A stretch of 30,728 bases of DNA from a virus (taxonomy: Duplodnaviria; Heunggongvirae; Uroviricota; Caudoviricetes; Peduoviridae): IMG/VR virus record IMGVR_UViG_638275546_000001. One strand, 5' to 3'. The notes under the pieces are model-generated. The model made no database searches. It was not told where the DNA came from and saw nothing but the letters and a program-made list of their open reading frames with translations. A program made the translations under genes and the position numbers. Below are positions 9,436 through 30,709 of the stretch, piece after piece (positions within the stretch are counted from its first letter, which is position 1; every line of letters starts with the position of its first letter).

Positions 9436-10071
9436 ATGAACACTCTCGCAAATATCCAGGAACTCGCGCGCGCACTGCGCAACATGATACGCCCCGGCAT
9501 TATCGTCGAAACCGACCTTAACGCCGGTCGCTGCCGAGTGCAGACCGGCGGCATGTGCACTGACTGGCTTCAGTGGCTGACCCATCGTGCCGGTCGTTCG
9601 CGCACATGGTGGGCACCTTCCGTGGGGGAGCAGGTGCTGATTCTGGCCGTGGGCGGTGAACTCGACACGGCGTTCGTTCTGCCGGGGATTTATTCCGGCG
9701 ATAACCCCGCGCCGTCTGCGTCGGCGGATGCCCTGCATATCCGTTTCCCTGACGGGGCGGTGATTGAGTATGAACCCGAAACCAGTGCACTCACGGTAAG
9801 CGGAATTAAAACGGCCAGCGTGACGGCTTCTGATTCTGTTACTGCCACGGTGCCGGTGGTTATGGTGAAAGCATCAACCCGCGTCACCCTGGACACACCG
9901 GAGGTGGTCTGCACCAACAGGCTGATTACCGGCACGCTGGAAGTGCAGAAGGGCGGGACGATGCGCGGCAACATTGAACACACCGGCGGTGAACTCTCAT
10001 CAAACGGTAAGGTACTGCATACCCACAAACACCCAGGCGACAGCGGCGGCACAACCGGGAGTCCTCTATGA
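9436..10071 (+). CDS. V: Baseplate spike protein V
   Basis: 211-aa ORF; P2 gpV-like. Confidence 0.9.
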   Translation: MNTLANIQELARALRNMIRPGIIVETDLNAGRCRVQTGGMCTDWLQWLTHRAGRSRTWWAPSVGEQVLILAVGGELDTAFVLPGIYSGDNPAPSASADALHIRFPDGAVIEYEPETSALTVSGIKTASVTASDSVTATVPVVMVKASTRVTLDTPEVVCTNRLITGTLEVQKGGTMRGNIEHTGGELSSNGKVLHTHKHPGDSGGTTGSPL

Positions 10072-11861: not shown

Positions 11862-14603
11862 ATGAGCACGAAATTTAAAACCGTTATCACTACTGCCGGA
11901 GCCGCAAAGCTGGCAGCCGCCACTGTCCCCGGCGGGAAAAAAGTAAACCTGTCTGCAATGGCCGTGGGTGACGGTAATGGCAAATTGCCGGTGCCGGATG
12001 CCGGTCAGACGAAACTGGTGCATGAGGTCTGGCGTCACGCTCTGAATAAAGTCAGCGTGGATAACAAGAATAAAAACTATATCGTGGCTGAACTGGTTGT
12101 ACCGCCCGAAGTGGGCGGCTTCTGGATGCGTGAGCTTGGTCTGTATGACGATGCCGGAACACTGATTGCGGTATCCAACATGGCAGAAAGCTATAAGCCA
12201 GAACTGGCTGAAGGCTCCGGACGTGCGCAGACCTGCCGCATGGTTATTATTCTCAGCAACGTGGCGTCCGTTGAGCTGAGTATTGATGCCAGCACGGTGA
12301 TGGCGACGCAGGATTACGTCGATGACAAAATCGCAGAGCATGAGCAGTCCCGCCGCCATCCTGACGCCACGCTGACAGAAAAAGGTTTTACTCAGTTAAG
12401 CAGTGCAACAAACAGCACCAGTGAAAAGCTGGCGGCAACGCCAAAAGCGGTCAAGGCAGCAAATGACAACGCAAATTCACGTCTGGCGAAAAATCAGAAC
12501 GGTGCAGATATCCAGGATAAATCAGCTTTTCTGGACAATATTGGCGTTACCAGCCTGACGTTTATGAAACACAATGGAATGATTCCAACCACTGACAATC
12601 TTGACTCCTATGGCCCAGAAGAAAAATATCTTGGAACGTGGTCATGTCCGTCACAATCCACTGCAAAACCAGAGTCTGGTTACCCTGAAGATAAAGGCAA
12701 TGGGGTTCTGGAAGTATTCAATGCTGGTCGCTTTCACTGCACACAACGCTACACCACCCGAACCGGTAATATTTACATTCGGATGCTTGATGCAGAATGG
12801 AACCCAGCCAGTCCAACATGGAGTGCATGGAGAGTTATTACAAGCGGGACTCGACCATTAAGCACGTCAATTGACCTGAATTCTTTAGGTGGCGCGGAAC
12901 ACCTGGGAATATGGCGCAATAGCAGTACATCAATAGCCTCATTTGAACGTCATTTCCCGGAGGACGGGAGCTTTGGTCAGGGTATTCTGGAAGTCTTTGA
13001 AGGCGGTCTGTATGGGAGAATGCAACGTTACACCACCCGTAGTGGGACTATGTACATTCGCGGACTGACTGCCTCATGGGATGCAGAGAATCCACAATGG
13101 GAGGACTGGATTGCTGTTGGGTATCAGTCCACGGGATGGACTTATTCAGGGGATCTTGATGATCTTTTAAAGCCTGGTATTTATAGCGTCACGAAACAGG
13201 CCACAAATGCACCAGTCACCGACTCTAAAGATCTTGCTGTTGGCTCAATAGTTGAAGTGAAAAAACGTTGTGATATTGAATCGTATATCCAGACATATAC
13301 GACAGTTTCTGCAACGGATGCCTATAAAAACCGGACATTTCAACGAACTCGTGCCAGCGGTGAAGCTGACTGGGGGGAATGGGCGGAAGTTTACAACTCA
13401 AAATCATTACTCACTAAATTAGGTGTCGGCGGTGTTACCGACAGGTTATCCAGTCTGGACTGGCAGACCTACGACTTTGTGCCGGGCAGCATGATAACTG
13501 TCAGACTCTCCGATATGACCAATATCCCCGATGGGATGGAATGGGGCGTCATTGATACTAACCTGATAAATATCACTGTTGGCCCCAGTGAAGGTGGAGG
13601 TGTCGCCCGTTCAATGCAGGTATGGCGCAGCACCTCAAACAAAACCAACTATCGTTTTTTTACAGTCCGCTTATATGGCAATCCTGGGGAGCGTAGCTTC
13701 AATATTCGTCGGCTACCAATTATCGACGAAGCCCAGACATGGGAGGCAAAACAGACATTCAGTGCAGGCCTCTCTGGTGAACTGTCCGGCAATGCGGCGA
13801 CAGCAACAAAGCTGAAAACAGCCCGTAAAATTAATAACGTTTCGTTTGATGGAACATCAGATATTAACCTGACGCCGAAAAATATTGGTGCATTTGCTTC
13901 AGGAAAAACAGGAGACACCGTTGCGAATGATAAAGCCGTTGGATGGAACTGGAGTAGCGGAGCCTATAACGCAACTACTGGTGGGGCATCAACGTTAATT
14001 CTTCATTTTAATATCGGTGAAGGAAGTTGTCCCGCAGCCCAGTTCCGCGTTAATTATAAGAACGGCGGTATTTTTTATCGTTCTGCTCGTGATGGTTACG
14101 GATTCGAGGCTGACTGGTCTGAGTTTTATACCACAACGCGAAAACCTACAGCGGGAGATGTCGGTGCACTGTCGTTATCTGGTGGTCAATTGAATGGTGC
14201 ACTGGGCATCGGAACATCCAGTGATCTTGGCGGTAATTCGATTGTTTTGGGTGATAATGACACGGGCTTTAAACAAAATGGTGATGGTAATCTGGATGTT
14301 TATGCTAATAGCGTCCATGTTATGCGCTTTGTCTCCGGAAGCATTCAAAGTAATAAAACCATAAATATTACGGGGCGTGTTAATCCTTCGGATTACGGTA
14401 ACTTTGATTCCCGCTATGTGAGAGATGTCAGACTTGGCACTCGTGTTGTTCAGACCATGCAGAAAGGCGTGATGTATGAAAAATCAGGCCATGTAATCAC
14501 GGGGCTTGGTATTGTCGGTGAAGTCGATGGTGATGACCCCGCAGTATTCAGACCAATACAAAAATACATCAATGGCACATGGTATAACGTTGCGCAGGTG
14601 TAA
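11862..14603 (+). CDS. H: Tail fibre protein H (mosaic; conserved P2-like N-terminus, divergent distal receptor-binding region)
   Basis: 913-aa ORF; N-terminal ~200 aa recognised as P2 gpH-like baseplate-attachment region; the remainder is of lower GC, carries an internal duplicated ~70-aa module and a C-terminal ...GTWYNVAQV segment; followed by the assembly chaperone G. Confidence 0.88.
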   Translation: MSTKFKTVITTAGAAKLAAATVPGGKKVNLSAMAVGDGNGKLPVPDAGQTKLVHEVWRHALNKVSVDNKNKNYIVAELVVPPEVGGFWMRELGLYDDAGTLIAVSNMAESYKPELAEGSGRAQTCRMVIILSNVASVELSIDASTVMATQDYVDDKIAEHEQSRRHPDATLTEKGFTQLSSATNSTSEKLAATPKAVKAANDNANSRLAKNQNGADIQDKSAFLDNIGVTSLTFMKHNGMIPTTDNLDSYGPEEKYLGTWSCPSQSTAKPESGYPEDKGNGVLEVFNAGRFHCTQRYTTRTGNIYIRMLDAEWNPASPTWSAWRVITSGTRPLSTSIDLNSLGGAEHLGIWRNSSTSIASFERHFPEDGSFGQGILEVFEGGLYGRMQRYTTRSGTMYIRGLTASWDAENPQWEDWIAVGYQSTGWTYSGDLDDLLKPGIYSVTKQATNAPVTDSKDLAVGSIVEVKKRCDIESYIQTYTTVSATDAYKNRTFQRTRASGEADWGEWAEVYNSKSLLTKLGVGGVTDRLSSLDWQTYDFVPGSMITVRLSDMTNIPDGMEWGVIDTNLINITVGPSEGGGVARSMQVWRSTSNKTNYRFFTVRLYGNPGERSFNIRRLPIIDEAQTWEAKQTFSAGLSGELSGNAATATKLKTARKINNVSFDGTSDINLTPKNIGAFASGKTGDTVANDKAVGWNWSSGAYNATTGGASTLILHFNIGEGSCPAAQFRVNYKNGGIFYRSARDGYGFEADWSEFYTTTRKPTAGDVGALSLSGGQLNGALGIGTSSDLGGNSIVLGDNDTGFKQNGDGNLDVYANSVHVMRFVSGSIQSNKTINITGRVNPSDYGNFDSRYVRDVRLGTRVVQTMQKGVMYEKSGHVITGLGIVGEVDGDDPAVFRPIQKYINGTWYNVAQV

Positions 14604-14606
14604 ATT

Positions 14607-15134
14607 ATGCAGCATTTAAAAAACATTAAGTCAGGTAATCCAAAAACAAAAGAACAATATCAGCTAACAAAGAATTTTGATGTTATCTGGTTATGGTCCG
14701 AAGACGGAAAAAACTGGTATGAGGAAGTAAGTAATTTTCAGGAAGACACGATAAAGATTGTTTACGACGAGAATAATATAATTGTCGGCATCACCAGAGA
14801 TGCTTCAACGTTCAACCCTGAAGGTTTTAGCGTTGTCGAGGTTCCTGATATTACCGCCAACCGACGTGCTGATGACTCAGGTAAATGGATGTTTAAGGAT
14901 GGTGCCGTGATTAAGCGGATTTATACGGCAGACGAACAGCAACAACAGGCAGAATCACAAAAGGCCGCGTTACTTTCCGAAGCGGAAAGCGTTATTCAGC
15001 CACTGGAGCGCGCTGTCAGGCTGAACATGGCAACAGATGAGGAGCGTAGCCGACTGGAAGCATGGGAACGCTACAGTGTTCTGGTCAGCCGTGTGGATCC
15101 TGCAAATCCTGAATGGCCGGAAATGCCGCAATAA
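14607..15134 (+). CDS. G: Tail fibre assembly chaperone
   Basis: 175-aa ORF; P2 gpG-like. Confidence 0.9.
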
Positions 15135-15158: not shown

Positions 15159-15207
15159 GCACAGAGTAAAGCCTAATCTGACAGTCCGCTCTGTGCAAGG
15201 AGCGGAC
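15159..15207. terminator. Nested stem-loops between convergent G and the minus-strand accessory ORF (candidate bidirectional terminator)
   Basis: GTCCGCTC-tgtgcaag-GAGCGGAC perfect 8-bp hairpin (15184..15207) overlapping a GCACAGAG...CTCTGTGC inverted repeat (15159..15197); no clear U-tract on either strand. Confidence 0.4.
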
Positions 15208-15285
15208 ATTACCTAACACATTGGTAACCTTCACAGATTTACGCGTTCTACATAGTTAGCATTGTATCTGATGAGTTATCATGTT

Positions 15286-16065
15286 TTAAAATATCCAACT
15301 GATAAATCCACCTGAATACTTTTCACTAATTTTGATTGCATAAAGATCATGAAGAGTTATAAATAAATCATTATCTTCTTTGAAAATTAACTCCTCATAC
15401 TCTGCCATTATCAAATTATGCTGTGTTGTTAGTTTAGATATGTTATCTATTTCACTGGCAAGCATGGATTTGTTTACATTGGTGTGTGGATCCATGGCAA
15501 TATATTTCCGCATCAATGGAATTAGTTGATCAGGGTCTATATTTTTTGCATTTTCCTTTGCTTTTTTTTGTCTTTCTGAATAGATGGAGTTAATTGTGTT
15601 AGTGTGTTTTTTCGCCAGTCTCTTAAACTCTGGATATGAACCAGTAACTAATGCAAGCTCTTCGTACTTAAGGAATAAATCGATATTGCATTTTTTTACC
15701 GTCATTTCAAGATCTTCAACTCTTTTTTTTAACTCTTCATTTGTTTTAATAAGAGACATCGGGAGAACTTCATAATGTTGTCCTAATTCTGAATCAGGGC
15801 TCATTGCCATATGTACTATTTCATTATACATGAGCTGATAAGAAGCAGATAACTCTCCATACTTTAGAAATAGTTCATTATGTGAAGATGAACAAGAACT
15901 TTGTAATTTCATCATTGGCCTAAAGTAATCCTTTATAAACTCCTCCTGAAGATCTTGGTCTTTTTTGTAGCTCTCTAGGATTCCAGCAAAAAGAAATGAC
16001 CCTAAAGATATAGAGATTATGGATATTAGCAATTGACTAAGGAATGATTGTGTTTCATTACTCAT
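15286..16065 (-). CDS. Accessory (moron) protein at the Z/fun position: single-pass membrane protein of unknown function, candidate phage-exclusion protein
   Basis: 259-aa ORF with ATG start and AGGA Shine-Dalgarno; opposite strand to the flanking late genes; markedly AT-rich; N-terminal hydrophobic helix (about residues 8-30), Lys/Glu-rich soluble remainder with no motif I recognise. Confidence 0.75.
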   Translation of the reverse strand: MSNETQSFLSQLLISIISISLGSFLFAGILESYKKDQDLQEEFIKDYFRPMMKLQSSCSSSHNELFLKYGELSASYQLMYNEIVHMAMSPDSELGQHYEVLPMSLIKTNEELKKRVEDLEMTVKKCNIDLFLKYEELALVTGSYPEFKRLAKKHTNTINSIYSERQKKAKENAKNIDPDQLIPLMRKYIAMDPHTNVNKSMLASEIDNISKLTTQHNLIMAEYEELIFKEDNDLFITLHDLYAIKISEKYSGGFISWIF

Positions 16066-16465
16066 AAAACATCCTTAAAAAATAACACGAAAAGTGACTC
16101 CTGACAGGGAAGAAACGACAGGTCGGAAACAAACTTAACTGATGAGTTAGCTGTAGTCCAGAACCTTGTTTTAACACTTAGTGTGACTGTTTGCATCTCA
16201 GGAATTTGTGCCAATAATATTTGAATCCTTATAATTTATTTAAATCAAATTTAGTTACTCGCTCAAAGCAGGCTGTCAGATTTGATAGCGTTTGGGCTAT
16301 GTAAACTGTCAGTCGGAAAATGAGTGTGTACAAATCAGGACAGGCGAGCTGATTGCCCGCCTTTTCTTTATCTGTTGTTTCATCCACTGACCAGCCAGGT
16401 CAAATAGCGTCTCATGCTCTGCACAACAGAAAATAGTTGCACCCATTAACCACGGAGTTAAACGG

Positions 16466-26850: not shown

Positions 26851-29125
26851 AGCCTCCGGGCGTTTTGTCCCTCCGTCAGCATTTGCCGCAGGCACCGGTA
26901 AGACGTTTACCGGTGCTTATGCATGGAACGCGCCACGCGAGGCCGTCGGGCGCGAAAGACCCCTTACACGTGACGAGATGCGTCAGGTGCAAGGTGTTTT
27001 ATCCACGATTAACCGCCTGCCTTACTTTTTGCGCTCGCTGTTTACTTCACGCTATGACTACATCCGGCGCAATAAAAGCCCGGTGCACGGGTTTTATTTC
27101 CTCACATCCACTTTTCAGCGTCGTTTATGGCCGCGCATTGAGCGCGTTAATCAGCGCCATGAAATGAACACCGACGCGTCGTTGCTGTTTCTGGCAGAGC
27201 GTGACCACTATGCGCGCCTGCCTGGAATGAATGACAAGGAACTGAAAAAGTTTGCCACCCGTATCTCATCGCAGCTTTTCATAATGTATGAGGAACTCTG
27301 CGATGCCTGGGTGGATGCGCATGGCGAGAAAGAATCACTGTTTACGGATGAGGCTCAGGATCACCTGTATGGTCATGTTGCTGGCGCTGCACGAGCTTTC
27401 AATATTTCCCCTCTCTACTGGAAAAAATACCGTAAAGGACAGATGACCACGAGGCAGGCTTATTCTGCCATTGCCCGTCTGTTTAACGATGAGTGGTGGA
27501 CTCATCAGCTTAAAGGCCAGCGTATGCGCTGGCATGAGGCGTTACTGATTGCTGTCGGGGAGGTCAATAAAGACCGTTCTCCTTATGCCAGTAAACATGC
27601 CATTCGTGATGTGCGTGCGCGCCGCCAGGCAAATCTGGAGTTTCTTAAATCATGTGACCTTGAAAACAGGGAAACCGGCGAGCGCATCGACCTTATCAGT
27701 AAGGTGATGGGCAGTATTTCTAATCCTGAAATTCGCCGGATGGAGCTGATGAACACCATTGCCGGTATTGAGCGTTACGCCGCCGCAGAGGGTGATGTGG
27801 GGATGTTTATCACGCTGACCACGCCGTCAAAGTATCACCCGACACGTCAGGTCGGAAAAGGAGAAAGTAAAACCGTCCAGCTTAATCACGGCTGGAACGA
27901 TGAGGCATTTAATCCGAAGGATGCGCAGCGTTATCTCTGCCGTATCTGGAGCCTGATGCGCACGGCATTCAAGGATAATGATTTACAGGTCTACGGTTTG
28001 CGTGTCGTCGAGCCACACCACGACGGAACGCCGCACTGGCATATGATGCTTTTTTGTAATCCACGCCAGCGTAACCAGATTATTGAAATCATGCGTCGCT
28101 ACGCGCTCAAAGAGGATGGAGACGAAAGAGGAGCCGCGCGAAACCGTTTTCAGGCAAAACATCTTAACCGGAGCGGTGCTGCGGGGTATATCGCGAAATA
28201 CATCTCAAAAAACATCGACGGCTATGCACTGGATGGTCAGCTCGATAACGATACCGGCAGGCCGCTGAAAGATACTGCTGCGGCTGTTACCGCATGGGCG
28301 TCAACGTGGCGCATCCCGCAATTTAAAACGGTTGGCCTGCCGACAATGGGGGCTTACCGTGAACTACGCAAATTGCCTCGTGGCGTCAGCATTGCTGATG
28401 AGTTTGACGAACGCGTTGAGGCTGCACGTGCCGCCGCAGACAGTGGTGATTTTGCGTTGTATATCAGCGCGCAGGGTGGGGCAAATGTTCCGCGTGATTG
28501 CCAGACTGTCAGAGTCGCCCGTAGCCCGTCGGATGACGTTAACGAGTACGAGGAAGAAGTCGAGAGAGTGGTCGGCATTTACGCGCCGCATCTCGGCGCG
28601 CGTCATATTCATATCACCAGAACGACGGACTGGCGCATTGTGCCGAAAGTTCCGGTCGTTGAGCCTTTGACTTTAAAAAGCGGCATCGCCGCGCCTCGGA
28701 GTCCTGTCAATAACTGTGGAAAGCTCACCGGTGGTGATACTTCGTTACCGGCTCCCACACCTTCTGAGCACGCCGCAGCAGTGCTTAATCTGGTTGATGA
28801 CGGTGTTATCGAATGGAATGACCCGGAGGTCGTGAGGGCGCTCAGGGGCGCATTAAAACACGGTCGGAGAACGCCAAACCGTCAGCAAAGAAACGGAAGC
28901 CCGTTAAAACCATATGAAATGGCACCATCGGCCAGACTGACCCGGTCGGAACGAATGCAAATTACCCGTATCCGTGTTGACCTTGCTCAAAAGGGTATCA
29001 GGCCGCAGCGATGGGAACTTGAGGCGCTGGCGCGTGGAGCAACCGTAAATTATGACGGGAAAAAATTCACGTATCCGGTTGCTGATGAGTGGCCGGGATT
29101 CTCAACAGTAATGGAGTGGAAATGA
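26840..29125 (+). CDS. A: Replication initiation protein A (rolling-circle nickase)
   Basis: Start at internal ATG (MAVKASGRFVPPSAF..., 761 aa); recognised as P2 gpA-like, with the conserved ...EPHHDGTPHWHMMLF... and ...AKYISKNIDGY... (active-site Tyr) motifs. Confidence 0.9.
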   Translation: MAVKASGRFVPPSAFAAGTGKTFTGAYAWNAPREAVGRERPLTRDEMRQVQGVLSTINRLPYFLRSLFTSRYDYIRRNKSPVHGFYFLTSTFQRRLWPRIERVNQRHEMNTDASLLFLAERDHYARLPGMNDKELKKFATRISSQLFIMYEELCDAWVDAHGEKESLFTDEAQDHLYGHVAGAARAFNISPLYWKKYRKGQMTTRQAYSAIARLFNDEWWTHQLKGQRMRWHEALLIAVGEVNKDRSPYASKHAIRDVRARRQANLEFLKSCDLENRETGERIDLISKVMGSISNPEIRRMELMNTIAGIERYAAAEGDVGMFITLTTPSKYHPTRQVGKGESKTVQLNHGWNDEAFNPKDAQRYLCRIWSLMRTAFKDNDLQVYGLRVVEPHHDGTPHWHMMLFCNPRQRNQIIEIMRRYALKEDGDERGAARNRFQAKHLNRSGAAGYIAKYISKNIDGYALDGQLDNDTGRPLKDTAAAVTAWASTWRIPQFKTVGLPTMGAYRELRKLPRGVSIADEFDERVEAARAAADSGDFALYISAQGGANVPRDCQTVRVARSPSDDVNEYEEEVERVVGIYAPHLGARHIHITRTTDWRIVPKVPVVEPLTLKSGIAAPRSPVNNCGKLTGGDTSLPAPTPSEHAAAVLNLVDDGVIEWNDPEVVRALRGALKHGRRTPNRQQRNGSPLKPYEMAPSARLTRSERMQITRIRVDLAQKGIRPQRWELEALARGATVNYDGKKFTYPVADEWPGFSTVMEWK

Positions 29126-29574
29126 TGGCAAAAATTCACGAGGTAAAGCTGCACGCAAAATATTTCGACCTTGTGCTGGAAGGAAAGAAACGTGCAGAGT
29201 TTCGGAAAAATGACCGTAATTATGAGCGCGGGGACACGCTGATTTTGCATGAATGGGTACAGGGTGTGTTTACGGGGCGAAAGGTTGAAGCCCGGATAAC
29301 AGATGTTACTGACCTGTCAGACTGGCTGGAAGATTATGTCTTGCTAAGTATTGAGCTGCTTAATACAGGCGCATATGAGATTGTGAACTGGAAAGAACTT
29401 AGTGAGCGTGGTCTGGTATTCAGAATTAATCATGAAATTATGCATCAGCTCGGTCTTGCTGTTATGTATGAGTCAGTGACAGGCCTGTCTGGCGGAGCAG
29501 TGGTTGCTGCGGATGGGATGTGGAGCTATTCAGATGAACAGGTGGAGTGTGCAAAGCAAAAAGGGTGGTTTTGA
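29122..29574 (+). CDS. Hypothetical protein, ASCH/PUA-like N-terminal domain (tentative)
   Basis: First ATG of ORF 29089..29574 (track start is GTG inside A); 150 aa; N-terminal MMAKIHEVKLHAKYFDLVLEGKKRAEFRKNDRNYERGDTLILHEW resembles ASCH-type small domains (weak, from memory); 3' end overlaps the convergent minus-strand gene by 45 nt. Confidence 0.55.
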   Translation: MMAKIHEVKLHAKYFDLVLEGKKRAEFRKNDRNYERGDTLILHEWVQGVFTGRKVEARITDVTDLSDWLEDYVLLSIELLNTGAYEIVNWKELSERGLVFRINHEIMHQLGLAVMYESVTGLSGGAVVAADGMWSYSDEQVECAKQKGWF

Positions 29575-30522
29575 AAATGCACAGAATACCAGGCGAGATA
29601 CCTCAGCATAAAACTTAAGGTCAGCCCCGTTTCTAAAGGACGTTAAAGCCTTGGGGTTATCAATAACAGAAGATAATAGGCGTAAATTTCGGGACTCTCC
29701 AACCTTTGTTTTCCCGGAATCATCCTTTTTATAAAGCCATACTGTAAGTTCTCTGGTATTTTCTCTATTTATATGATGTGGGTGAATTATTACATCATTG
29801 GATGTAATATCACCATATTCGTCTTTTTCTGAAACGCCAACAAACAATCCAATTTTCTCGTCAGCTAAGGCTGTAGATAAAATTGAAAACTTGATCGATT
29901 CTTCATCTAATCCATCAATATCATAAAAGTTATTGCTCTCCATTACTTTATAAACGGCTAAAGCATCTAGATTTCTCTTGATATGATCTTTTCTGCTACC
30001 GATTGCACGAGCAACCTGATGATATCGATCATTAGTCGGTGAGTTTGGGGAGGTGAGACCAAAAAGTTGCTCGATATAACGAGCCTTCGATAGAGGTTCC
30101 CATTGTTTGACACCAGTGATATGTCTGAAACCCAAATAAGGTAAAATTTCAGCTCTGGTATCTCTAACGATCACTGGTAATTTTTCTAGTGTACCTAGTT
30201 TATCTTTAGCGCTTTCGGCGATTTCTATCATCCGGGAGCTGGGTCTGTCGCACTCATATGGGTTATGAATAAGTTTAACTGCCGTTAAGCGACGGTTGCC
30301 TTCCACAACGGTGTACTTATCTCCCTCTTTAACCGCAATAAGAGGCTCGCCAGGAAAAAATCCATTTTCTGCGATTGCATTCATCAAGTCTTCAATAGAG
30401 GTTGTTAGAGCTATATGATTTAGCATTGCTTCTGGGGTACGTTCAACACCTTCAGGAAGACGTGGATTTTTTGTATCAAGCTCAAGTTTATTGAGGTCGA
30501 TGTAATCAAGGCTTTCTGTCAT
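29530..30522 (-). CDS. Accessory protein at the tin/old position: ParB N-terminal-like (ParB/Srx-fold) domain protein, candidate anti-phage defence nuclease
   Basis: ORF track 29530..30555 begins at a TTG; first ATG is at 30522 (MTESLDYIDLNKL..., 330 aa); N-terminal ~100 aa carry the ParB hallmarks (I-DL-KL...NPR...; hydrophobic core; GEPLIAV; ...YTVVEGNRRLTAVKLI, cf. ParB GERRxRA box); C-terminal ~200 aa unrecognised; AT-rich, opposite strand to the early operon. Confidence 0.75.
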   Translation of the reverse strand: MTESLDYIDLNKLELDTKNPRLPEGVERTPEAMLNHIALTTSIEDLMNAIAENGFFPGEPLIAVKEGDKYTVVEGNRRLTAVKLIHNPYECDRPSSRMIEIAESAKDKLGTLEKLPVIVRDTRAEILPYLGFRHITGVKQWEPLSKARYIEQLFGLTSPNSPTNDRYHQVARAIGSRKDHIKRNLDALAVYKVMESNNFYDIDGLDEESIKFSILSTALADEKIGLFVGVSEKDEYGDITSNDVIIHPHHINRENTRELTVWLYKKDDSGKTKVGESRNLRLLSSVIDNPKALTSFRNGADLKFYAEVSRLVFCAFSKPPFLLCTLHLFI

Positions 30523-30709
30523 AACTCTAATCTCATTAGATATGGTGATATGCAAAGATTAACACTGGAGTTAAACGTAGGCTAGAACTGCAATTATGTG
30601 CATTAAAATGCATGCGTAAGTAACTCGCTAAAATGAAGCCATAAACTCACAGTGGTGCTATGAATAATATGTTATGCAACTGCATTAAAACCGACCCATG
30701 AAGCGGGCG

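Follow-up and report, generated by a model that had tools for sequence, protein, structure and literature searches.

The closest described counterpart of the gene analysed here is gene H of Yersinia phage L-413C, a P2-like phage used in plague diagnostics. As summarised in PMC7460101, its product GpH was described in 2008 (Garcia et al., Virology 2008;372:85) as a mosaic in which 207 residues at the N-terminus and 137 at the C-terminus are P2-like and the middle is itself mosaic. A receptor-binding role for GpH was shown in 2020 with fluorescent fusions, which bind to Y. pestis and do not bind to Y. pseudotuberculosis (PMC7460101). The LPS-core receptor of L-413C had been mapped in 2011, when the terminal GlcNAc and heptoses were found to be needed by both L-413C and P2; L-413C and P2 vir1 have the same critical receptor residue on Y. 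pestis, namely the terminal GlcNAc in the outer core of the LPS (PMC3182234).

Several other fibres are relevant to the comparison. P2 gpH (NC_001895, 669 aa) occupies the same place in the order I-H-G. The S protein of phage Mu is about 500 aa long, its distal half is switched by DNA inversion, and structures of S/S' with chaperone U are available (5YVQ, 8JU3); the Mu chaperone and the product of G belong to the same Tfa family. In Tfa proteins, one domain is reported to bind the fibre tip and the other to drive trimerisation (North et al. 2019, as cited in PMC9608196). R1 and R2 pyocin fibres carry two tandem knobs that lead into a shaft that binds iron and a foot that is lectin-like (6CL5, 6CL6, 6CU2; Buth et al. 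2018, PMC6116203). The gp37 fibre protein of T-even phages has its own N-terminus, which forms the gp36 junction, and its own C-terminal part, which works with gp38.

The window, by which we mean the whole analysed stretch of 30,728 nucleotides, starts at the P2 cos end, and its open reading frames are colinear with the P2 annotation through V-W-J-I-H-G, with a Tfa-type chaperone gene directly downstream of H. An open reading frame of 913 codons, already recognised as H from the letters alone, was found as described. An exact-sequence look-up revealed that its product is residue-for-residue identical to L-413C GpH (AAP04455.1 / NP_839867.1), and the H and G pair is 100% identical in eight complete E. 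coli genomes. Membership in the P2-like gpH family is further indicated by the PF12571 match (E = 3e-57). We therefore judge, with a probability of roughly 0.85, that the gene is H of L-413C, a P2-like phage, and that it encodes a trimeric tail fibre built from exchangeable modules. The mosaic nature of this gene is already published, and the finding is correct but ordinary; the P2-like ends and mosaic middle of the published account agree with our alignments. However, neither the knob fold nor the three-copy array described below is named in that account as summarised in PMC7460101. The domain map is given in Table 1.

Table 1. Positions of genes H and G and of the segments of H within the window
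Feature	Position	Strand	Basis
Gene H (913 aa), tail fibre protein	11862..14603	+	ORF; identical to L-413C GpH
N-terminal tail-collar fibre domain (baseplate attachment), P2-type, aa 1-151	11862..12314	+	Pfam PF12571, E 3e-57
Proximal shaft, Phage_fiber_2 repeat, Mu fibre S-like, aa 167-236	12360..12569	+	PF03406 at aa 170-211, E 1e-20; Mu S aa 110-189 (5yvq, 8ju3)
Predicted knob domain 1, aa 237-329, contains unit 1	12570..12848	+	AF2 globular beta unit, pLDDT ~75-85
Predicted knob domain 2, aa 330-421, contains unit 2	12849..13124	+	
Predicted knob domain 3, aa 422-514, diverged; missed by the sequence-only reading	13125..13403	+	AF2 globular unit at aa 426-512
Conserved region 'D4', aa 515-640, last part of T-even gp37-like cassette	13404..13781	+	Homologous to RB33 gp37 394-516
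Conserved fibre linker motif GNAATATKLKTARKINNVSFDGTSDINLTPKNIGA, aa 641-675, distal recombination junction	13782..13886	+	Sliding identity
Distal domain, Mu S/S'-like plus Pfam gp37_C, aa 674-771	13881..14174	+	8ju3 residues 321-418, domain E 3e-48
C-terminal shaft and tip resembling P2 H and Mu S, aa 772-913 plus stop	14175..14603	+	P2 H alignment; Mu S 425-503 in 5yvq
Gene G (175 aa), chaperone for tail fibre assembly	14607..15134	+	PF02413 Caudo_TAP, E 1e-36

The two ends of H are P2-like. Over residues 1-166 the identity is 84% to P2 H and 99-100% to the Peduovirus alleles P24A7b and P24B2; extended to residues 1-207, the identity to P2 is 83.6%, which bears out the initial view that the first ~200 residues are conserved and P2-type. 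Protein alignment detected no P2 gpH match between residues 207 and 772, and by blastn the DNA homology stops at nt 12467, within the proximal shaft (residue ~202-207), and restarts at nt 14397. The anticipated fall in GC content is located at the first of these breakpoints, with 0.536 in 11862-12467 versus 0.465 in 12468-14396; the upstream baseplate genes have 0.576. At the protein level, relatedness to P2 H resumes at residue 772: the gapped alignment of residues 772-913 with P2 H 472-669 has 51% identity. Identity is 61% over residues 772-845 and 82% over the last 68 residues (846-913; nt 14397-14600). Since only residues 1-207 and 772-913 are related to P2 H, full-length colinear identity is absent and the interpretation of H as a recombinational mosaic stands. 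P2 H in turn carries 18-aa and 38-aa segments in its C-terminal domain that are missing from the L-413C protein. It has neither a knob cassette nor a Mu S'-like domain and is 244 aa shorter.

The P2-like DNA that begins inside H at nt 14397 is continuous through G, whose product is 94.9% identical to P2 G. The fibre tip and the chaperone are thus inherited together as one unit, and there is no re-fitting problem of the kind raised by the sequence-only reading, which held that a retained G must fit a new C-terminus; the C-terminus is not new. That the P2-like tip travels with G explains the retention of the chaperone. The P24A7b fibre has a different tip, and only the C-terminal half of its chaperone can be aligned with G (39% identity). 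In one study, co-expression of G gave no gain in GpH solubility (PMC7460101).

Between the P2-like ends, two related tandem modules of ~70 aa had been proposed: unit 1 (YLGTW...PTWSAW, residues 256-323) and unit 2 (HLGIW...PQWEDW, residues 347-416). The relatedness and, to within a few bases, the coordinates are upheld, but the modules are really ~92 aa in size. After excision from H (self-BLAST with the whole protein returned the identity match alone), the two units align with 41% identity over 88 aa (BLASTP with composition adjustment, E = 1e-21) and with an hhalign probability of 99.8% (E = 2e-29). Given that the units are short, and nothing else speaks for it, a resemblance due to chance or composition was considered, but the Smith-Waterman score of 174 compares with 25.9 +/- 4.8 for 2000 shuffles, none of which exceeded 53 (z = 30.6), and together with the BLASTP and hhalign values this refutes an artefact, to which we assign practically no weight. 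A failure of the repeat to reach significance, which would have undone the proposal, was thus not encountered.

The homology of the two units is therefore secure, and unit 2 is followed by a third, more diverged unit. In the L-413C allele, this unit has no significant similarity to knobs 1 and 2 in pairwise or profile comparisons (hhalign 12-37%). Nevertheless, we assign it as a probable knob on the basis of the AF2 model, of motifs that it has in common with the other knobs in the alignment (DLN..G, G.LEV, QRYTT/QTYTT and W..W) and of other alleles. The unit at the corresponding position in gp37 of the T-even phage RB33, which is absent from the knob profile, scores 1e-17 against it; the score of knob 1 (i-E 1.6e-37) is to be read with the fact that the profile contains the knob 1 sequence. 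Each of the Peduovirus alleles examined carries three units, and 1071 cluster representatives at 50% identity match the knob, with 1-8 tandem copies each. The knob profile detects no knob in P2 H.

Pfam, NCBIfam and single-sequence PDB searches gave no match in the knob region, and the fold assignment draws on models. The AF2 predictions are of monomers and have moderate confidence (mean pLDDT 62.8 and 70.9). They suggest that 5-6 strands form a small antiparallel beta-sheet bearing outer loops, similar to Knob1 and Knob2 of R2 pyocin, and a Foldseek search retrieved 5efv, 6cl5 and 6cl6 (E = 2e-5 to 1e-4). At the sequence level, similarity to the R1/R2 pyocin knobs is marginal: the best PDB match of the knob profile is the R1 pyocin fibre (6cl5 positions 141-211, placed in Knob2 by offset arithmetic; E = 0.0056). 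Close homologues carry the NCBI name 'pyocin knob domain-containing protein', a naming that favours the relationship, and knobs are a kind of domain common in phage and pyocin fibres. In contrast to the two-knob pyocin array with its shaft and foot, the three knobs of H lead to a Mu S'/P2-type tip that works with a Tfa chaperone.

The middle of H is related to the distal long tail fibre protein gp37 of a subset of T-even phages, represented by RB33 (KM607001), where three corresponding knobs are found together with D4 and the linker motif, in unchanged order. Residues 226-690 of H align to RB33 gp37 105-562 with 44.8% identity (E = 1e-134). The expectation that the GNAATATKLKTARKINNVSFDG segment and the C-terminal motifs would resemble other fibres proved sound, with the former (residues 637-675) 61.5% identical to RB33 gp37 68-106 and the terminal ...INGTWYNVA aligning to Mu S (5yvq, 8ju3). 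D4 varies little from allele to allele, with a low entropy of 0.24 bits, and is modelled with pLDDT <50; it shows no similarity to the knobs in profile and pairwise tests and no PDB sequence match.

These alignments bear on the age of the array. The label 'internally duplicated module' could be taken to mean that a tandem duplication in L-413C H recently gave rise to units 1 and 2 as a lineage-specific innovation, and the units are indeed adjacent and clearly homologous. However, their codon-aligned nucleotide identity is 53%, falling to 36.6% at third positions, and no direct repeat between them is detected at the DNA level. Moreover, each knob of H is closer to its positional counterpart in RB33 gp37 (49/65/31% identity) than to its paralogues (41/23%), and the same three units recur in the other Peduovirus alleles noted above. 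A recent duplication is accordingly very improbable: the units are homologous as claimed, but they were not duplicated in the history of H itself. Sequence comparison instead shows the array of knobs to be an old three-domain block, inherited whole and shared with T-even gp37. A very recent acquisition by T-even gp37 from the L-413C lineage is likewise excluded, because the identity is only 45%.

H was also considered as a member of the T-even gp37 family itself, but only residues 226-690 align, H has a P2-type N-terminus and a P2/Mu-type tip, and no gp38 homologue was found within the window. H therefore has modules in common with gp37 while standing outside the gp37 family. Residues 681-756 match the Pfam gp37_C model (PF12604; 24.8 bits, cutoff 22.5). 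A similar outcome was obtained for the Mu S/S' invertible fibres. Residues 167-246, 674-771 and 837-912 match Mu S or S', but this homology is segmental: Mu S lacks the knob cassette, and no invertase ORF, inverted alternative exon or suitable inverted repeats were found around H-G.

Comparison among Peduovirus alleles defines the edges of the central block. Both ends of H are of the P24B2 type (97-100%), including the distal domain at residues 674-771 (99% identical to P24B2, 18-19% to P2 and P24A7b), whereas residues ~241-630 hold a cassette of the P24A7b type (98-99%). Sliding DNA identity places the distal junction, where P24A7b-like sequence gives way to P24B2-like sequence, between nt 13752 and 13842, and many PHROG fibre families match H at the linker stretch (residues 641-675) only. 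The block from knob 1 through D4 appears to be an exchangeable cassette with edges at conserved linker motifs. Given that P24B2-type alleles share the distal part of H at 97-100% identity, it is the cassette that sets the L-413C allele apart. Within it, variability among alleles is greatest in knobs 1 and 3, which show only ~45% identity to most other alleles, versus ~72% for knob 2 and D4.

These observations give the following order of modules along the fibre. The P2-type N-terminal domain (residues 1-151), which would anchor the fibre to the baseplate, is followed by the Mu S-like shaft with its fibre repeat (167-236). Next comes the cassette of three tandem knobs and a conserved fourth region (~237-640), whose homologue is the proximal half of T-even gp37, then the linker motif (641-675) and the Mu S'/gp37_C-like distal domain (674-771), and last the P2/Mu-type shaft and tip (772-913), which G, the chaperone inherited with it, presumably helps to fold. 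Primary contact with the LPS core may be made by the conserved P2-like tip and the subterminal Mu S'-like domain. By analogy with Knob2 of R-type pyocin fibres, the knob array may add secondary, low-affinity saccharide contacts and/or set fibre length and orientation, and in this way modulate host range. Recombination at conserved linker motifs would move the cassette between phages.

Conservation of the P2-like tip fits the GlcNAc-containing LPS-core receptor common to L-413C and P2. The sequence-only reading had supposed that the receptor-binding part was acquired by recombination and that the host range differs from that of P2. The latter and the mosaicism hold, but acquisition of the receptor-binding part is only partly true, because L-413C and P2 vir1 share the critical GlcNAc residue. 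Furthermore, P2 H uses the same GlcNAc receptor with no detectable knob, and thus knobs are unnecessary for this contact.

The shared GlcNAc/heptose receptor, taken with the lack of a detectable knob in P2 H, also lends some weight to a purely architectural role, in which the knob array would be a folding nucleus and a spacer that sets fibre length and stiffness, with all specificity residing in the distal ~240 aa, which comprise the Mu S'-like domain and the P2-like tip. Knob-like domains are probably important in trimer folding (Buth et al. 2018, PMC6116203), and the host range of the P2-like phage P88 was mapped near the distal end of its fibre, at aa 716-746 (PMC5285337). On the other hand, the greater divergence of knobs 1 and 3 relative to adjacent knob 2 and D4 is the pattern expected under diversifying selection, and the distal part of H hardly differs from that of P24B2-type alleles. 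In addition, Knob2 is the most diverse region of R pyocin fibres and has been proposed to bind LPS, and a knob-like domain of K1F binds sialic acid (Buth et al. 2018, PMC6116203). We regard an exclusively architectural function as a tentative possibility that falls short of an even chance. A stronger version of the binding role can also be formulated, in which the block from knob 1 through knob 3 and D4 would be a self-contained secondary receptor-binding cassette, mobile via its flanking linker motifs between temperate P2-like and virulent T-even phages, and it would be the cassette of the L-413C type, not the P2-like tip, by which the phage tells Y. pestis apart from Y. pseudotuberculosis and from most E. 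coli. We consider this proposal doubtful.

The value of the present analysis is limited in that it re-derives the published mosaic GpH from raw sequence and opens no new question. What it adds is a domain map with three knobs, evidence for an old cassette common to T-even gp37, and a tip that forms one inherited unit with chaperone G. Peduovirus alleles probably exchange the cassette at the conserved linker motifs, and these additions could guide the rational engineering of L-413C detection reagents or retargeted pyocins by indicating where to cut.

The tail-fibre gene H lies downstream of P2-type baseplate genes, and the order V-W-J-I-H-G, where G encodes the tail-fibre chaperone, is colinear with that of phage P2, whose cohesive end (GGCGAGGCGGGGAAAGCAC) is found at the start of the window. 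The window lacks orf30, which P2 carries between its genes S and V; the end of S (9369) is followed by the start of V at 9436, and this absence explains why coordinates are shifted by 872 bp from those of P2. An exact-sequence look-up identified the H protein as 'tail fiber protein [Yersinia phage L-413C]' (AAP04455.1, NP_839867.1, UniRef Q858V4), and eight complete E. coli genomes contain prophages whose H plus G DNA matches at 100% identity. At most 71% of H is covered at high identity by any record in the phage collection searched, because the L-413C record is absent from that collection. A Pfam search of the 913-aa protein revealed four domains, which are listed below with the other features.

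Coordinates of gene H, its domains and other features of the window
Feature	Position	Strand	Remarks
H	11862..14603	+	unbroken ORF, 913 aa
Tail-collar fibre domain, N-terminal	H aa 1-151		PF12571, E 3e-57
Phage_fiber_2 repeat	H aa 170-211		Pfam
Knob 1	H aa 237-329		beta unit (AlphaFold2)
Knob 2	H aa 330-421		beta unit (AlphaFold2)
Knob 3	H aa 426-512		beta unit (AlphaFold2)
D4	13404..13781 (H aa 515-640)		
gp37_C	H aa 681-756		weak match, Pfam
gp37 trimerisation	H		sub-threshold match, Pfam
G	14607..15134	+	175-aa ORF downstream of H; Caudo_TAP tail-fibre assembly protein, E 1e-36
G-FI insert	15212..16257		32% GC
Inverted repeat flanking insert	15175-15199 / 16258-16282		25 nt, imperfect, 80% complementary
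ORF in insert	15286..16065	-	259 aa
DUF3850/ASCH + DUF7415 ORF	29089..29574	+	161 aa
Right-end ORF	29530..30555	-	341 aa, TTG start as listed

Only residues 1-207 (83.6% identity) and 772-913 (51%, gapped) of H can be aligned with the 669-aa P2 gpH, and homology to P2 at the DNA level ends at nt 12467 and restarts at nt 14397. The mosaic gene proposed in the sequence-only reading is borne out by these breakpoints and by the lack of full-length colinear identity to P2, as is its GC shift after the P2-type N-terminal region: GC content is 0.576 in the baseplate genes, 0.536 in the 5' portion of H that is P2-like and 0.465 in the non-P2 part. Gene H and its mosaic nature are already published. 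As cited in PMC7460101, Garcia et al. (2008) called L-413C GpH a hybrid with P2-like N-terminal 207 and C-terminal 137 residues, described its middle as itself mosaic and resembling other enterobacterial fibres, and proposed that the hybrid explains how Y. pestis is told apart from Y. pseudotuberculosis.

The two tandem modules previously noticed (aa 256-323 and 347-416) are related, with 88 aa aligned at 41% identity (E 1e-21), a Smith-Waterman score of 174 against 25.9 +/- 4.8 for 2000 shuffles (z = 30.6), and an hhalign probability of 99.8% between profiles built from alleles. Given that P2 colinearity is lacking and that the repeat is significant, the original observation is therefore confirmed, and the interpretation placed on H is partly supported. 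The duplication was an undercount, since a third unit is also present. Of two AlphaFold2 models made, that of aa 225-640 (32-sequence alignment, mean pLDDT 62.8) contains three consecutive globular beta units with block pLDDT values of ~75-85, followed by a low-confidence stretch (aa 513-640). The top Foldseek matches in the PDB are the receptor-binding proteins of phi11 and 80alpha and the fibres of the R1/R2 pyocins (E 2e-5 to 2e-4), a list that overlaps closely with the one obtained by Buth et al. from searches with R2 pyocin Knob1 and Knob2 (PMC6116203). The best PDB match of a three-unit profile is to positions 141-211 of the R1 pyocin fibre chain, at a marginal E of 0.0056; by offset arithmetic, these positions fall in Knob2. 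Many close H homologues carry the NCBI name 'pyocin knob domain-containing protein'. The repeated module is a known kind of domain with a wide distribution, under whose name homologues are already annotated.

Pairwise and profile tests revealed no significant similarity of knob 3 of the window allele to knobs 1 and 2. Knob 3 has the motifs DLN..L..G, G.LEV, Q(R/T)YTT and W..W in common with them, and the unit at the same position in gp37 of phage RB33 (a T-even distal long tail fibre), which was outside the training set of the knob profile, scores 1e-17 with it. RB33 gp37 carries three knobs in identical order, and its residues 105-562 match H aa 226-690 (44.8% identity, E 1e-134); numerous further T-even phages and Yersinia T4-like phages give this match as well. 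Knobs 1, 2 and 3 of H are 49, 65 and 31% identical to their positional counterparts in RB33, versus 41, 23 and 24% to paralogues. Knobs 1 and 2 have a codon-aligned identity of 53% (37% at third positions), and a DNA-level search detected no repeat between the units. The triplication is therefore far older than phage L-413C. Tandem knob arrays are also commonplace: at E <= 1e-3 the profile hits 1071 cluster representatives, whose sizes are ~400-1700 aa and which carry one to eight tandem copies.

Per-domain identities and a 90-nt sliding DNA comparison were used to compare H alleles within Peduovirus. Relative to the P24B2-type allele, window H is 99-100% identical in its N-terminus and shaft and 97-100% identical from nt ~13752 through G; across aa ~241-630, DNA identity drops to 46-79% (protein identities: knob 1, 47%; knob 2, 71%; knob 3, 45%; D4, 72%). 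This same block is 98-99% identical to the P24A7b allele, which differs in its chaperone and has a distal part that is unrelated. Thus, the stretch from knob 1 to D4 behaves as a cassette. Its junctions are located just upstream of knob 1 and inside a conserved motif, GNAATATKLKTARKINNVSFDG (aa 637-675), that recurs upstream of the RB33 gp37 knob block (residues 68-106, 61.5% identity). D4 is highly conserved and common to T-even gp37; its AlphaFold2 pLDDT values are <50, and neither a profile comparison with the knobs nor the PDB gave a match.

At the distal end, the Mu S/S' fibre (PDB 8ju3) is matched by H aa 674-771 (domain E 3e-48), and the Mu S tip (5yvq) by aa 837-912. Identity to P2 H is 61% over aa 772-845 and 82% over aa 846-913, with segments of 18 and 38 aa of P2 H lacking in L-413C H. 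The P2-like DNA restarts exactly at the start of the tip and runs through G, whose identity to its P2 counterpart is 94.9%. Fibre tip and chaperone are therefore P2-like together, and the earlier worry about G, a P2-like chaperone, having to match a new C-terminus falls away; the two are one inherited unit. The P24A7b chaperone, whose fibre tip differs, can be aligned to G only in its C-terminal half (39%), which fits the two-domain Tfa model of North et al. (2019, as cited in PMC9608196), wherein fibre specificity resides in one domain and trimerisation is driven by the other.

Outside H and G, homology to P2 ends at 15211 and restarts at 16258 around an insert at the P2 fun(Z) position. The protein encoded by its ORF matches only phrog_7729 (unknown function), with no Pfam, NCBIfam or PADLOC match, and is found in exact form on ~1000 contigs. 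We consider the insert a candidate for lysogenic-conversion or defence cargo at this known P2 variable locus. At the right end of the genome, an ORF in a ~40% GC stretch occupies the place of P2 old/tin. It has no Pfam match. PADLOC PD-Lambda-5_A is matched by the first ~160 aa of its product (E 6e-23), PDC-M38A is a further match (E 1e-19), and the ORF may be an anti-phage defence gene. The DUF3850/ASCH ORF adjoins it.

Fluorescent GpH fusions attach to Y. pestis but not to Y. pseudotuberculosis (PMC7460101), and the receptor-binding part of the L-413C fibre was grafted onto R2 pyocin in order to kill Y. pestis (Williams et al. 2008, as cited in PMC11464564). For both L-413C and P2 vir1, the terminal GlcNAc of the LPS outer core is required, and HepII/HepIII and HepI/Glc also contribute (Filippov et al. 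2011, PMC3182234). In the model that we consider most likely, the N-terminal domain would anchor the trimer to the baseplate, and the G-folded P2/Mu-type tip, with the Mu S'-like subterminal domain, would contact the LPS core, because the receptor is common to P2 and the tip is conserved. The three knobs would form a beaded mid-section. They might only set fibre length and stiffness, a less probable role that is favoured by P2 having the same GlcNAc receptor with no knob detectable in its H by the knob profile search. However, a comparison of 30 alleles puts the greatest divergence of the window allele in knobs 1 and 3 (median identities 46 and 45%, versus 72-73% for knob 2 and D4), a pattern that favours some role in specificity. 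We prefer a binding role for the knobs by roughly two to one, in which they may orient the fibre through secondary, low-affinity contacts with saccharides, as has been proposed for pyocin Knob2.
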